Source: a virus. From it: DNA of 64,000 nucleotides. The notes under the pieces were generated by a model. It was not told the origin of the DNA. It did not search any database and was given only the letters and a program-made list of their open reading frames with translations. A program made the position numbers and the translations under genes. Of the stretch, positions 11,495 through 17,319 are shown piece by piece; the first letter of the stretch is position 1, and each line of letters opens with the position of its first letter. Location: IMG/VR virus record IMGVR_UViG_3300027833_000001, positions 64,001 through 128,000 of that record; one strand, given 5' to 3'.

Positions 11495-11514
11495 CGTAAA
11501 CAATGGAGAAAAAT

Positions 11515-12432
11515 ATGTCTTTTAATTCACTTTCTGACCTCCGCAATTCCCGCGGCAACTTTAATTCTTTAATGAAAGAAGTTGAGAAAATGTCCACTAC
11601 AACCACAACACAATCCCGTGATGATGGTCGTGAGTGGAAACCCACAGTCGATCAAGCTGGTAATGGCTATGCTGTTATTCGATTCCTACCTGCACCAAAG
11701 GGAGAAGATTTCCCATGGGCAAGAATCTGGAATCATGGCTTTCAAGGCTCCACTGGCAAGTGGTATATCGAAAACTCTCTGACTACTCTTGGTCAACAAG
11801 ATCCAGTCTCTGAGTTAAACACCGAACTATGGAATAGTGGTGTTGATTCCGATAAAGAAATTGCACGTAAGCAGAAGCGTAGGCTTGCATACTATGCAAA
11901 CATTGTGGTTGTTAAAGATGCATCTAACCCTGCAAATGAAGGACAAGTATTCCTTTATAAGTTTGGTAAGAAAATCTTTGATAAGATTTCCGAAGCAATG
12001 AAGCCAGAGTTTGAGGACGAAACTCCTCTAAACCCATTCGACTTCTGGGAAGGTGTCAACTTTAAACTGAAGATTCGTCAAGTAGAGGGTTACCGAAACT
12101 ATGACAAGTCTGAGTTCGAAGCGACTACAACACCAGTAGCAGATAGTGATGACGCTATCGAAGCTATCTGGACAAAGCAGTATTCACTCGCTGAAATTAC
12201 TGATCCTAAGAACTTCAAATCATATGAAGCATTGCAAACTAAATTGCAACAAGTGCTTGGTGGAAGGGCTGTCCCTGCACCAGCGGCAAGTGTATCTTCA
12301 CAGACAGGTGATGTCGAAGATGATCTATTTGTAAAGAGTAACGGAGCAACTGATCCTGCCACAACTGTGGAATCAGCATCTACGGATGATGATGCATTAT
12401 CTTACTTTTCGAAGTTAGCCGATGAGGACTAA
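11515..12432 (+). CDS. gp32: Single-stranded DNA-binding protein gp32
   Basis: GNGYAVIRFLPAP, HGFQG..GKWYIENSLTT, YKFGKKIFDKI, NPFDFWEG.NFKLKIR, acidic tail ending DDALSYFSKLA; GGAG RBS before ATG 11515. Confidence 0.96.
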   Translation: MSFNSLSDLRNSRGNFNSLMKEVEKMSTTTTTQSRDDGREWKPTVDQAGNGYAVIRFLPAPKGEDFPWARIWNHGFQGSTGKWYIENSLTTLGQQDPVSELNTELWNSGVDSDKEIARKQKRRLAYYANIVVVKDASNPANEGQVFLYKFGKKIFDKISEAMKPEFEDETPLNPFDFWEGVNFKLKIRQVEGYRNYDKSEFEATTTPVADSDDAIEAIWTKQYSLAEITDPKNFKSYEALQTKLQQVLGGRAVPAPAASVSSQTGDVEDDLFVKSNGATDPATTVESASTDDDALSYFSKLADED

Positions 12433-12497: not shown

Positions 12498-13997
12498 ATG
12501 CACGGAATAATATTTGGTGGCTTGTTAGAAGATTTGGGAATGGACTCCAGTATGGTAGCTATTCGTAGATCATCTGGTGCACATAAGATTGCTACCTTTT
12601 TACGAAATCATAATTATGATATTGAGGTTGTTGATTATATTCATCGATGGTCTTTAGATCAATTAAAAGAATTTACAATAAAGAAAGTTGATACAGAAAC
12701 TCTTTTCTTTGGCTTTAGTTCTACGTTTATGATTAGCACACCAGAGTTGATTGAGTTTGTTCATTGGCTCAAACATAGATACCCCAATATCAAACAAGTT
12801 ATCGGTAGTCAAAATCAAACAATGAAAGAACTACCATGTGACTGGTATATTTACGGGTATGGTGAGTACGCTATACTAGCACTCTTAGACCACTTTAAGG
12901 GAGGACCAGAGCCGATACACGAAGGAAATCTTATAAATGCATATACTAACTACAAGGCATTTCCTAAAGAAGACCTTTCTGTTCAATATACAGAGAGAGA
13001 TTTTATCCACGACAGGGAAATACTACTGTTAGAGATGGCAAGAGGATGTAAGTTCAAATGCTCTTTCTGTAGTTTTCCTATTCTTGGTGTGAAAGATGAT
13101 CATACAACCTCAGAACAATATTTCTACGATGAGATGTCGAGAAACTATGACAAATGGGGTACGACTCATTACATGGTTCTAGATGAAACATTCAATGATT
13201 CTAGTGAAAAGATTGCGAAGTATGCGGCTGCCTGTAGAAAACTTCCATTCCAACCTAAGATGACTGCTTATATTAGAGCAGACTTAATGGTATCTAGAAT
13301 ACAAGATTGGGACAACTTGATAGATATGGGAATCACTTCTCACTTTTATGGTGTTGAGTCTATGCATTTACCTTCAGCTAAATCAATTGGCAAAGGAATG
13401 AACAGTGGGCGAATACAAGATGGCTTGCTTCATGTAGATGAGTACTTCAGAAAGAATGCTGGCTTTTATAAAGGACATATATCTTTGATTGCTGGTTTAC
13501 CACATGAGACATTAGAAACTCTCAGAGAAACAAAAGACTGGTTAGAAAAGTATTGGATAGAAAATAGTTATCATATGAATCTATTGATGATTAAAGATTT
13601 AGATAAAAATGGCGCGTCACTGAATCATAACTCTGCTATGGATAAAGATTGGAAAAAATTTGGATACGAGAAAACTACTTTTCCAGAAGAGTGTGATATT
13701 GATTGGAGTAAAAGTTATAATCCATATTTCAAAAATCTCTATGAGTACGTGGATAAGTATGAATACTATTTGAAATGGAAAAATGAAAATTTAAGTCTTT
13801 ACGAGGTTACTAAATTTGCAGTTGAAGAATGGAGTCAAGCTAAACTTAAAAATGGTATTGATCCGTTTATGTATGATAAGTTCTTTATTGATCCCACAGT
13901 TAAGTGGAGTGACTTTGCTGAATTAAATCATTTAGAAAGAAGAACAGACCACATCAATGCTCATATAGATGACTATATAAGTAAGAAATTATCCTAG
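12498..13997 (+). CDS. B12-binding-domain radical SAM protein
   Basis: ARGCKFKCSFC (CxxxCxxC), DETFND, YIRADL, GVES, IAGLPHET; N-terminal GAHKIA..LR...Y.IEVVD cobalamin-binding-like region. Confidence 0.85.
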   Translation: MHGIIFGGLLEDLGMDSSMVAIRRSSGAHKIATFLRNHNYDIEVVDYIHRWSLDQLKEFTIKKVDTETLFFGFSSTFMISTPELIEFVHWLKHRYPNIKQVIGSQNQTMKELPCDWYIYGYGEYAILALLDHFKGGPEPIHEGNLINAYTNYKAFPKEDLSVQYTERDFIHDREILLLEMARGCKFKCSFCSFPILGVKDDHTTSEQYFYDEMSRNYDKWGTTHYMVLDETFNDSSEKIAKYAAACRKLPFQPKMTAYIRADLMVSRIQDWDNLIDMGITSHFYGVESMHLPSAKSIGKGMNSGRIQDGLLHVDEYFRKNAGFYKGHISLIAGLPHETLETLRETKDWLEKYWIENSYHMNLLMIKDLDKNGASLNHNSAMDKDWKKFGYEKTTFPEECDIDWSKSYNPYFKNLYEYVDKYEYYLKWKNENLSLYEVTKFAVEEWSQAKLKNGIDPFMYDKFFIDPTVKWSDFAELNHLERRTDHINAHIDDYISKKLS

Positions 13998-15709
13998 ACA
14001 GTACTAACAAATCTAGCAGAACCAGGCGCACCAGGTAATGATTGATCTCCACTAATTACCGAAACAGACACATCGCTTGCTTGAACATTAACGGGTGCTG
14101 GATCAGCAGGAGGTACAATAATAGTTGCAGGTTCGTTTCGTGCTTCATTGGCTGCCTCTGTCTCGCGTGATACTTCTTGAGAATCAATGTTTGGTGTACC
14201 AGTAGATGGTGTTAGTTTAGCACGTTTTTCAAGTTCTGTATTGATAAGATTTTGATTTTCCTCACTGATATCATCATCTTTAATAATAGCATTAAGTTGA
14301 CCTGTGGTAGCAGTAGCTATTTTAGAAGCATCGACTTCACTCTTACCAATTAAGTCCTCATCATATAGTCCACTATCTTTGGCTGAAGATAGGTTATCCG
14401 ATTGTGTTTTTCTTGCTGTAATTTCTTTTTCTATAAAGGCTTCTACTTGATCAGATGCTTCAGTAATTAGAGCCGGGAATCTTTCTTTGACTTTAGGATC
14501 TTCTTCTGGATATACTTCATGCAGATTGAAATATGCTTCTCTTGCAATTTCGTAACCAGCAACACCTAAAGTACCCACAGTACCTACACCAGGAACAAGT
14601 GCAGTTGCGGCTAGTCCTGCTCCTACCATGTCACCTTTAACTAGCTTATGAATCCCTATACCTGCCGCTACCGCTGATCCAACAAAGGGTATTGTTCTTC
14701 CTAATAGTCCTGGACCTTTTGAAGCAATTGCTTTAGTAACAGCCGCGGCTATTTTTCCACTCTTGGTCACACCAGTGACGTTTGCTAAATCAGCAGATAA
14801 AGCCGCGCCCTTAGCCGCTATAATTTTGAGGTTTCCTAATTTTGAAGGGTCGGTAACTCCTTCTTTTAAAAGTTTTCCTCCAAACCCTGCCGTTTTCTGA
14901 GCCTTAGTTAACCTTTCAGCATTACGACCCAACTCTACCACCTTCCCTGATTTCTCAACGACAGTATTTGCTACACCACCAACGGCTCTTAGTACACTAG
15001 GAGCGGCAGCCGCAGTTGCTCTGACAGCAGTTGGACTTATCGCTTTTGCTAACTTTGTAGAGTCTAGTGCTGAACCTGCATCAAGTGGACCAGTTCTATT
15101 AGGGTCTGACTGTAAATCAAGAATCGGCTTTGTTGGTGGAACACCTGGTACAACTTCCCCGTTGTTCTCTTTACCTTTAGCCATCTGGTTCATTAACAGC
15201 GAGAATCCTGCCAGTCCAAGTCCCGCTTTACCCAGGGTACCACCTAATCCTTTAACATTAGGCATTGAGAAACCAGATTTAATCTGTTCCTCTGATTTTT
15301 CGTTTGTCTCAAATACTTCTTTTTCTTCTGTATTTTTATTTATTTCTTTAAGTTCGCTTTTGATATCGATTAAAACATTTTCAATTTCTTGAAGATTTTC
15401 TGTAGCAGAACCTAAGGCGTTTGCATTTACCGTAGTACTTCTACCATTGTTATTAGCAGTTGGTGCAGACACTTGTGCATTTAGTCCACCTATATTTTTT
15501 CCTGGATTAGTACTAGCTAGATTAGCCCTAGCCATAGAATTAAAAGGAATTACATTGTCACTATTACCACGTCCTCCAGAAAGCATTCGGGCACCCATGC
15601 CAACTCCTGCACCCACTCCCACAGTTTTTGCTGTTCCTTTAAGAATTGGCAATGCTCTTGAAGCCATGGGTGAAACGATTCTACCGGCTCCTGCTAAAAA
15701 TGGTAACAT
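13994..15709 (-). CDS. Tape-measure / baseplate hub candidate (gp29-like)
   Basis: 571 aa, Ala/Gly-rich helical, with hydrophobic IPFVGSAVAAG...VPGVGTVG segment; directly downstream of gp26/gp51. Confidence 0.55.
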   Translation of the reverse strand: MLPFLAGAGRIVSPMASRALPILKGTAKTVGVGAGVGMGARMLSGGRGNSDNVIPFNSMARANLASTNPGKNIGGLNAQVSAPTANNNGRSTTVNANALGSATENLQEIENVLIDIKSELKEINKNTEEKEVFETNEKSEEQIKSGFSMPNVKGLGGTLGKAGLGLAGFSLLMNQMAKGKENNGEVVPGVPPTKPILDLQSDPNRTGPLDAGSALDSTKLAKAISPTAVRATAAAAPSVLRAVGGVANTVVEKSGKVVELGRNAERLTKAQKTAGFGGKLLKEGVTDPSKLGNLKIIAAKGAALSADLANVTGVTKSGKIAAAVTKAIASKGPGLLGRTIPFVGSAVAAGIGIHKLVKGDMVGAGLAATALVPGVGTVGTLGVAGYEIAREAYFNLHEVYPEEDPKVKERFPALITEASDQVEAFIEKEITARKTQSDNLSSAKDSGLYDEDLIGKSEVDASKIATATTGQLNAIIKDDDISEENQNLINTELEKRAKLTPSTGTPNIDSQEVSRETEAANEARNEPATIIVPPADPAPVNVQASDVSVSVISGDQSLPGAPGSARFVSTV

Positions 15710-15895
15710 TTATTTGTTCCTTTGTTTATCTGCTTTCTTTTTCAGATGATCGACTAGCATACTTACGTATACTTCCCTTTCCCATGGTACCCAACTTTCG
15801 ATCTCTGTTAAACTGTATTTATGCTCTTGCATTAATAGAAAGTTAGTTTTGAAGAAATTCTCCATAGTTTCATGTGAAAGGGCTAGACGAAAAAA
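15710..15895 (-). CDS. gp51: gp51-like baseplate hub assembly protein, possibly made only as the -1 frameshift extension of gp26
   Basis: LSHE.MENFFKTNFLLMQEHKYSLTEIESWVPWEREVY. No SD-preceded start codon; the conserved part begins at the slippery site. Confidence 0.75.
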   Translation of the reverse strand, partial: FFRLALSHETMENFFKTNFLLMQEHKYSLTEIESWVPWEREVYVSMLVDHLKKKADKQRNK

Positions 15896-16590
15896 TCCAG
15901 ATAGCCATTCATCCAAAAAGTACTGGTTTTACCACAGTCAGTGTTCTTACACGTAAATGTGATTTCTTTTTCAAGTACTGGCATTGTTCCAAAAAAATCT
16001 TTGAATGCGCCAAACTCACCCAACGATAGTCCTTCAATGAACTCTATCTTTTCTTCTTTTGTTAAATCAGAACCTAATACAACGTCATCTTTAGTATGAA
16101 TCTCTTCAATACAATTAGCCGCGGCATCATAGATATCTAATTCTTCTTTTGCGGCACCTATATCCATTAAATCTTCCGCTGTTGGATATCCCATTAGTAT
16201 TGCGGTATCATCATTCACTTTGATAGGATTAATATGATTTTCATTCTCTGTTATGTCGAAGTCATTCATGTCTATCTCTTCAGGTATAGATTCGTCACAA
16301 TGTCCACATACAAAGTTTACTGCAAATTTGGGCGAGATTGATGCCGATCTAAGTTGCATAAAAATCTTTTGAAGATCAAAGATTGGTATATCATCACCTT
16401 GTACTTCTCCAAAAGAACAATTTGTAATAACTTGTTGTATCGCTTTCACGAGGTCAAGTTGATCATCTGATTGTGTTGCTAGTACTAGTATTTTTTCTTC
16501 CTTTACTAGAAAGGGTCTAAATTTGAACTTCTTTCTCCTTGACAGTATGTGTATGTCAAAGAGTCGCTGGTCACTTTGGGGTATGCTCAT
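15883..16590 (-). CDS. gp26: Baseplate hub assembly protein gp26
   Basis: KFRPFLVKEEKIL, FDL..IF.QLRSAS, CxxC pairs, FFGTMP.L, C-terminal G..DFF. Confidence 0.88.
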   Translation of the reverse strand: MSIPQSDQRLFDIHILSRRKKFKFRPFLVKEEKILVLATQSDDQLDLVKAIQQVITNCSFGEVQGDDIPIFDLQKIFMQLRSASISPKFAVNFVCGHCDESIPEEIDMNDFDITENENHINPIKVNDDTAILMGYPTAEDLMDIGAAKEELDIYDAAANCIEEIHTKDDVVLGSDLTKEEKIEFIEGLSLGEFGAFKDFFGTMPVLEKEITFTCKNTDCGKTSTFWMNGYLDFFV

Positions 16591-16608
16591 TATAACTCCT
16601 AATAATTA

Positions 16609-17319
16609 TTAAATATCGATAATGTCATCAAATGCATTTGATAAGCTATTCTTAATTTGATTCTCAAGACTGCCAAATCGTAAGTTAAGTATCTGTCCGA
16701 GAATACTTCTTCTATCTCCTTTTTCGTATGGAACCCATCTCTTGTACGAGAATGTTACTGTACAACGAGCCGCACCTTCACCACCACTATGAGATATTGG
16801 CGTTAGTGAGATGACTCTTGGAAAGGCTTCTTTCAAGCACCACTCTCCAACAATTCCATTAATTCTATCAAGTGCATAGACAGTTACTTCACCTATCATA
16901 TCACTGTAGAATGCGACTTCTTTAGAATAAGGGTTTACACTATTCATCATCCACTTCTCAAAATACTCTCTGACTTCCCAATCAGTATCACAGAAGAAAG
17001 TAAACGATGCTGTATCACCATAAAACTCTATGTTAGAAACTCTATTCTCTGTCCAAGATCCAATCTTTACTGGATTGTAGACTAGTTGTAGTCCTGGAAT
17101 AGCGGCTTCTTCACATAAAAGGGAAACATCTCTACTTCCATCAAGTCCTGTTGGTGCTTGAATGTATACAGCAAACCTATTTGCCCTGGCTAGATCATTG
17201 CGTCTAACCTTTGTGACCATATCACGTAGGTCAAATACGGGTTTATCTTTCCGCTTCTTAGTACTTGCTGTGTCTACATCGCTAGTATCTGTGGTTTTTT
17301 CTGGAGTTGTGTCTGTCAT
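16609..17319 (-). CDS. Tail-tube-fold protein (gp54-like tube initiator)
   Basis: LARANRFAV, LLCEEAAIPG, YFEKWM, L.EAFP, TVTFSY.RW. Confidence 0.75.
   Translation of the reverse strand: MTDTTPEKTTDTSDVDTASTKKRKDKPVFDLRDMVTKVRRNDLARANRFAVYIQAPTGLDGSRDVSLLCEEAAIPGLQLVYNPVKIGSWTENRVSNIEFYGDTASFTFFCDTDWEVREYFEKWMMNSVNPYSKEVAFYSDMIGEVTVYALDRINGIVGEWCLKEAFPRVISLTPISHSGGEGAARCTVTFSYKRWVPYEKGDRRSILGQILNLRFGSLENQIKNSLSNAFDDIIDI

Follow-up and report, generated by a model that had tools for sequence, protein, structure and literature searches.

The window analysed here is a stretch of 64,000 nucleotides from an uncultured marine virus (IMG/VR record IMGVR_UViG_3300027833_000001, positions 64,001 to 128,000 of that record). 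Four genes lie head to tail on its minus strand, namely a tube-fold gene, gp26, a gp51-like ORF and a gene encoding a 571-aa protein (Table 1), and neither promoter-like nor terminator-like sites were found between the four. They are surrounded by a T4-type module comprising gp32, gp4, gp2, gp48, gp53, gp5, gp25 and a PAAR protein. An unusual insertion among these core T4-type genes is a plus-strand ORF of 499 aa (12498-13997), which is located between gp32 (11503-12432, phrog_224) and the convergent 571-aa gene, carries a CxxxCxxC motif and looks radical-SAM-like by eye.

Table 1. Features of the gp26/gp51 locus, in window coordinates
Feature	Position	Strand	Basis
Tube-fold gene, 236 aa	16609-17319	minus	phrog_45 "tail tube", 5.4e-33
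gp26 short form, 235 aa	15883-16590	minus	PF12322 T4_baseplate, 5.9e-49; phrog_150, 4.5e-50
Slippery heptamer T_TTT_TTC, in the X_XXY_YYZ phase of the gp26 frame	15895-15889	minus	direct reading
Predicted -1 extension, 59 aa past Phe-Phe, gp51-like C-terminal module	15710-15889	minus	phrog_634, 1.3e-25
571-aa Gly/Ala-rich protein, candidate tape measure (gp29 role)	13994-15709	minus	position, composition

The original prediction, made from the letters alone, had placed a tube-fold gene upstream of gp26. This gene order stands, but the product is, by its phrog_45 membership, a gp54-type baseplate tail-tube initiator and not the major tube protein; T4 gp54 matches the same family at 1.2e-65. In gp26, the PF12322 match extends over residues 17-234 and the phrog_150 match over residues 2-234. 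The gp51-like ORF is in the -1 frame and overlaps the 3′ end of gp26. It is continuous with the gp26 body through a -1 shift only and also matches phrog_150, at positions 228-281.

The 3′ end of gp26 reads ...GGC TAT CTG GAT TTT TTC GTC TAG in the 0 frame, with the TAG at 15885-15883, while the -1 frame reads FFRLALSHETMENFFKTNF... at the junction and is open to the stop codon TAA at 15712-15710. After a -1 slip, base 15889 would be read twice and the next codon would be CGT (15889-15887). The unshifted product has 235 aa and the shifted product 234 + 59 = 293 aa, and the junction tryptic peptide of the predicted fusion would end in ...TFWMNGYLDFFR. Re-reading of the sequence agreed with what had been predicted for the end of gp26, the site of the heptamer, the -1 continuation and the sizes of both products. 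Two ATG codons without SD had also been proposed in the -1 frame, at 15916 and 15865; the second is an ATG, the first proved to be a TTG, and neither has an SD. Upstream of gp26, AGGAG lies 6 nt before the ATG, and AAGGA precedes the ATG of the 571-aa gene.

The motif TTTTTTY occurs 34 times in the window, i.e., less often than in shuffled sequences (54 +/- 9). By itself, the heptamer is not above chance; its conservation, phase and register across relatives are. The contigs of three metagenome runs from three studies span the junction without any indel or substitution (X1 and X4 are possibly the source of the window's DNA, X8 is independent), hence the T6 run and the stop codon are real in the DNA and not an assembly error. 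The one metatranscriptome run that contains this phage yielded contigs for parts of gp26, of the 571-aa gene and of the tube gene, and the junction lies outside them.

Near-identical versions of the region 13994-17319 occur in marine and seawater metagenomes sequenced by many studies (2016 to 2025) and in a single air metagenome, and four of these runs were compared with the region in detail. The phage would seem to be widespread in seawater. A megablast of the locus against phage genomes gave no match, and relatives came from protein comparison only.

Fold of gp26 and the tape-measure candidate

The AlphaFold (AF2) model of gp26 has a pLDDT of 86 and a pTM of 0.81. In an exhaustive VIA-align structural search of 48,161 chains with residues 1-90 of gp26, the best hit was 3fgx_B (Z 7.3, rmsd 4.3, 87 aligned), followed by 2ob9_B, described as "bacteriophage HK97 tail assembly chaperone" (Z 6.6, rmsd 4.8, 84 aligned), and by 3klu_A, YqbN of B. 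subtilis (Z 6.2), with later hits at 5.2 or below; Z values of 6-7, under 8, fall in the range where the tool warns of common arrangements. A Foldseek search of gp26 against the PDB returned nothing below E 0.2 and a PDB sequence profile search returned 0 hits. Because the top hits of the model are solved structures of the tail assembly chaperone type, the assignment of such a fold to the N-domain of gp26 leans positive but is not proven.

Two β-hairpins of gp26 (residues ~88-107 and 205-228), carrying a CxxC (CGHC) and a CxxxxC (CKNTDC) motif, are packed in the model like a small zinc ribbon. The VIA matches of this hairpin pair are to zinc-ribbon ribosomal proteins and to the ZitP zinc finger, at a Z of ~3. 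T4 gp26 and the proteins of the Aeromonas, Stenotrophomonas and Vibrio phages retain the hairpin cysteines, whereas the cyanophages have lost them.

The 571-aa protein is encoded directly after the predicted chaperone pair, as a tape measure would be. It matched no Pfam or PHROG family and showed no BLASTP similarity to T4 gp29, and an Atlas search yielded a model of low confidence and no hits other than hypothetical proteins of viruses. A weak similarity (E 0.004) was found to a protein of 811 aa that occupies the corresponding position in cyanophage S-RIM8. The proposal that 13994-15709 encodes the tape measure fits in position and composition, with no homology support from Pfam, PHROG or T4 gp29, and from its position this role is somewhat likely.

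The 811-aa protein of S-RIM8 (L001 3892-6327), which follows gp51, matches phrog_790, labelled "endolysin", at 3.4e-283. By position, it is the candidate tape measure of S-RIM8, so that the "endolysin" label may be misleading.

Junctions of related loci

The junctions of 119 loci were compared, comprising the window, 114 IMG/VR contigs and four phage records, with T4 left out; two further phage records were examined separately. The gp26 proteins of the 119 loci form 83, 27 and 12 clusters at 90, 70 and 50% identity, respectively, and their identity falls to ~25%. It had been proposed that aligned gp26/gp51 junctions should share a slippery heptamer and a fixed -1 register, and this is what the alignment revealed. 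An in-phase T_TTT_TTY is present in 118 of the 119 loci (T_TTT_TTC in 110 and T_TTT_TTT in 8) and the gp51 module lies in the -1 frame in 117 of the 119, the register being -1 in all 12 deep lineages. No module was called in two loci, namely L057, at a contig end, and L035, which is Vibrio phage K445 and has no heptamer. Because the distance from the heptamer to the stop codon varies (one codon in 110 loci, none in 5 and three in 3), the heptamer, and not the stop, is the fixed point of the junction.

The lineages carrying the heptamer include marine uncultured clades and the cyanophages S-RIM8, P-SSM4 and MA01, and it is also found in Aeromonas phage Aszh-1 (Straboviridae) and in Stenotrophomonas YB07. 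Rhizobium phage RHph_I46 (L120, ~1825-1845) combines T_TTT_TTG with a TGATG stop-start overlap, and from this arrangement the recoding and the stop-start routes both look possible in one phage. The heptamer is absent from Vibrio phage K445 (L035, 3700-3720) and Pseudomonas phage Cygsa01 (L121, ~1925-1945), in which the ATG of gp51 overlaps the stop codon of gp26 as TAATG and the -1 register is kept. In these lineages, gp51 may be made as a free small protein via translational coupling or independent initiation. No related loci were found with K445 as a query. The 120 listed gp26 homologues are 132-251 aa long, full-length ones being 218-251 aa, and no in-frame fusion of ~290 aa is found among them.

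Probable origin of the predicted long form

The conservation of the heptamer and of the register supports the original prediction that gp26 and the small gp51 ORF are a -1 pair similar to lambda G/GT. Judging from the compared sequences, the phage probably uses -1 ribosomal frameshifting of this type to obtain a long form of the predicted chaperone beside the short one. Most ribosomes would end at the TAG and release the 235-aa short form. A minority would slip back one base with tRNA-Phe on the TTT and the TTC of T_TTT_TTC, the slipped tRNAs would re-pair on TTT TTT and the -1 frame would go on with CGT CTA GCC..., leading to a minor 293-aa long form bearing the 59-residue gp51 module. Lambda G/GT and the T4 proteins gp26 and gp51 suggest by analogy that both forms together would serve, at a fixed ratio, as assembly chaperones of the tail and baseplate hub, and that neither would be expected in the virion; a pair of the G/GT type would also be expected to bind the tape measure and the tube protein. 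We infer the occurrence of the shift, the ribosome rather than RNA polymerase as its agent, its efficiency and the chaperone function of the products. The efficiency may be low, because re-pairing of tRNA-Phe from UUC to UUU is not thermodynamically favoured.

Across 26 lineage representatives, RNAalifold found no consensus structure downstream of the slip site, and the fold of the window has a z score of -0.16 (single-sequence z scores, relative to mononucleotide shuffles, have a mean of -1.6 and a range of -6.9 to +1.9). Upstream, an SD-like GAGGG is located 9-11 nts from the slip in many cyanophage lineages and is weak in the window; the pairing with the anti-SD amounts to -3.1 kcal/mol in the window versus -6 to -10 kcal/mol in many cyanophage lineages, a signal that is confounded by conserved Glu-Gly codons. 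The window site differs in this respect from dnaX-type sites, where frameshifting is stimulated by a stem-loop or pseudoknot on the downstream side or by an SD-like sequence upstream. However, a stimulator is not a defining feature of G/GT sites, and lambda G/GT is not known to have one either.

Readthrough of the stop codon was dropped as a candidate, the 0 frame past the TAG not being conserved and the module lying in the -1 frame.

The main rival to ribosomal frameshifting is slippage of RNA polymerase, in which an extra U added on the T6 run would bring gp26 and gp51 into one frame for normal translation. A homopolymer run of 6-8 T is present at the slip site in all lineages and rU:dA hybrids are the easiest to slip. 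In addition, the insertion of one U would give a protein identical to the frameshift product, so that protein data cannot separate the two. Efficient slippage by bacterial RNA polymerase is, however, usually reported for runs of ~8-9 or more, and selection for polymerase slippage should lengthen the run. Instead, the run is exactly six T in 110 of the 118 loci. Phe is preferentially encoded by TTT, with TTC making up 29% of its codons in the rest of these genes, but 110 of the 118 terminal heptamers close with TTC, and through this codon the run is held at six T.

The internal Phe-Phe sites of the same genes also bear on polymerase slippage. A second conserved Phe-Phe of gp26, in the "FF.TMP" motif, has an in-phase heptamer in 1 of 99 loci. 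Over all internal Phe-Phe sites, an in-phase heptamer is found in 1 of 121, versus 118 of 118 at the terminus, and T_TTT_TTC, terminal in 110 loci, is internal in none. Codon usage in these genes (TTT for 71% of Phe, and NNT for ~72-85% of Asp, Asn and AGY-Ser) would alone predict a heptamer frequency of ~57%, hence the observed internal frequency implies that the heptamer has been purged from the interior of the gene while being fixed at the terminus. An out-of-phase T6 (V TTT TTT) is tolerated at the internal site of gp26 (27 of 99 loci), where the in-phase heptamer is nearly absent, and never occurs at the terminal site, which is always in phase. On these sequence patterns, it is the phase that matters and not the length of the run, and polymerase slippage is an unlikely source of the long form.

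One internal heptamer is found in the window itself, where an in-phase T_TTT_TTT occupies 15997-15991 (minus strand) within the "FF.TMP" motif of gp26. It is unique to the window among the 99 loci, close relatives reading TTC TTT, and a -1 slip at this site would stop after six codons and give a truncated product.

More improbable still is that gp51 is a separate small protein of ~50-68 aa, translated from its own start or by termination-reinitiation at the gp26 stop, with no fusion. Databases annotate gp51 as a separate gene, the stop-start overlaps of K445 and Cygsa01 (TAATG, without heptamer) and of RHph_I46 (TGATG, with heptamer) would suit such a protein, and the -1 frame of the window offers the TTG at 15916 and the ATG at 15865. 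However, these two codons lack an SD, relatives at 64-80% identity do not conserve them, and the annotated gp51 starts lie at differing, non-homologous places in the relatives and cut into conserved sequence (19 codons past the slip in S-RIM8). In a survey of 26 lineage representatives, including L035 without heptamer, 16 had no ATG, GTG or TTG up to codon +4 past the slip, i.e., near the beginning of the conserved peptide, and 4 had no start codon within 30 codons; in several representatives the -1 frame is interrupted by a stop codon right in front of the heptamer. From the slip site on, and ahead of any start codon, the relatives keep the peptide FFR[LIV]x[LM]xH..L..[YF][YF]..NF.L; that the gp51-like sequence begins at the slip site had been noted for the window. 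Independent gp51 starts are likewise absent or unconserved in most lineages, as had been anticipated, with the TAATG lineages without heptamer among the exceptions. Furthermore, a separate gp51 explains neither the conservation of the heptamer nor its avoidance elsewhere, and T4 carries the gp51 module fused.

Finally, the heptamer might simply follow from an Asp/Ser-Phe-Phe C-terminus conserved in an AT-rich genome, with compact gene packing producing the -1 register by coincidence. This reading is strongly disfavoured and hardly credible: TTTTTTY is common in the window, even if less so than in shuffles, and TTT and NNT codons are preferred, but the same dipeptide hardly ever forms the heptamer elsewhere in gp26 and always does at the terminus, the register is -1 in every deep lineage and the peptide is conserved from the slip point, ahead of any start codon.

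Comparison with T4, lambda and other recoding systems

T4 gp26 (208 aa) and gp51 (249 aa) match PF12322 at 8.8e-64 and 3.9e-52, and cover positions 14-235 and 13-280 of phrog_150, respectively. The -1 module of the window aligns with the C-terminal 54 residues of T4 gp51, and T4 gp51 aligns unbroken across the junction (...DVF-KLLVNPDE... versus ...DFF-RLALSHET... in the window). From this alignment, T4 gp51 is a paralog of gp26 with the same C-terminal tail in one frame, and because it aligns straight across the junction, T4 has the short and long forms as paralogous genes. The likeness to T4 thus consists of the common membership in PF12322 and phrog_150 and of the match between T4 gp51 and the predicted long form of the window. 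In contrast to the window, in which one gene would be combined with recoding, genes 26 and 51 of T4 are separate, divergently transcribed paralogs and there is no frameshift; in the original prediction, T4 was not known to use one.

Cyanophage gp51 is only ~20% of the length of T4 gp51 (Sullivan et al. 2010, PMC3037559). A cyanophage gp51 that is a recoded tail of gp26 would explain its resemblance to only the last fifth of T4 gp51 (PMC3037559). For annotation, the small "gp51" ORF of cyanophages and marine T4-like phages would be best read as such a tail and not as a free-standing gene. T4-like phages would then fall under the general rule that long-tailed phages produce their tail assembly chaperone in two lengths, short and long, T4 being the two-gene variant. 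For the window, the outcome is a corrected gene model (predicted products of 235 and 293 aa) together with a lead, from gene position, to the tape measure.

Vladimirov, Gautam and Davidson (PMID 34826709; Virology 2022) reportedly identified gp26 and gp51 as the chaperones of T4-like phages; both PMC10885494 and PMC12846349 cite their study. [quoted passage not shown] The paper on phage Adele mentions poly-T as known -1 signals in "TAC-N genes of T4-like phages" (PMC12846349). Going by these citing papers, the gp26/gp51 frameshift device is not new and was published for T4-like phages in 2022. The window shares with the phages of that study, as far as it is cited, the gp26/gp51 family and the idea of a short and a long chaperone; it differs in coming from an uncultured marine virus, and no isolate in the phage collection searched has a gp26 more than 35% identical to that of the window. 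It is doubtful that the phase-specific pattern at the Phe-Phe sites provides new evidence on the mechanism that decides for the ribosome, and that the heptamer at 15997-15991 could make a third, truncated gp26 product; if this were true, the phase pattern would settle the question of mechanism left open by the title of the 2022 paper on T4-like phages, a title that one citing paper (PMC10885494) relates to the two genes of T4.

U-rich -1 sites, in which tRNA-Phe slips on X_XXY_YYZ, include the U_UUU_UUA of HIV-1 gag-pol and the site of T7 gene 10. The HIV-1 and T7 sites rely on downstream RNA structure or other context, whereas none is conserved at the gp26/gp51 site.

A -1 frameshift conserved in the tail assembly chaperones of long-tailed phages, with lambda gpG/gpGT as an example, was reportedly described by Levin et al. 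in 1993 and by Xu, Hendrix and Duda in 2004. The window differs from lambda in its heptamer (U_UUU_UUC versus G_GGA_AAG), and gp26 and gp51 have no sequence similarity to lambda G or T. The short form of the window (235 aa) is about twice as long as that of lambda and has an extra C-terminal part with the zinc-ribbon-like hairpins; the extension (59 aa) is short. The gene upstream is of the gp54 type in the window and encodes the major tube protein in the lambda layout. As in lambda G/GT, the two predicted products have a common N-terminus, the shift would be -1 from a heptamer close to the end of the short ORF, and no stimulatory structure is obligatory. The pair lies between a tube-fold gene and a long candidate tape measure, which may correspond to the lambda layout, and in the model the N-domain of gp26 seems chaperone-like.
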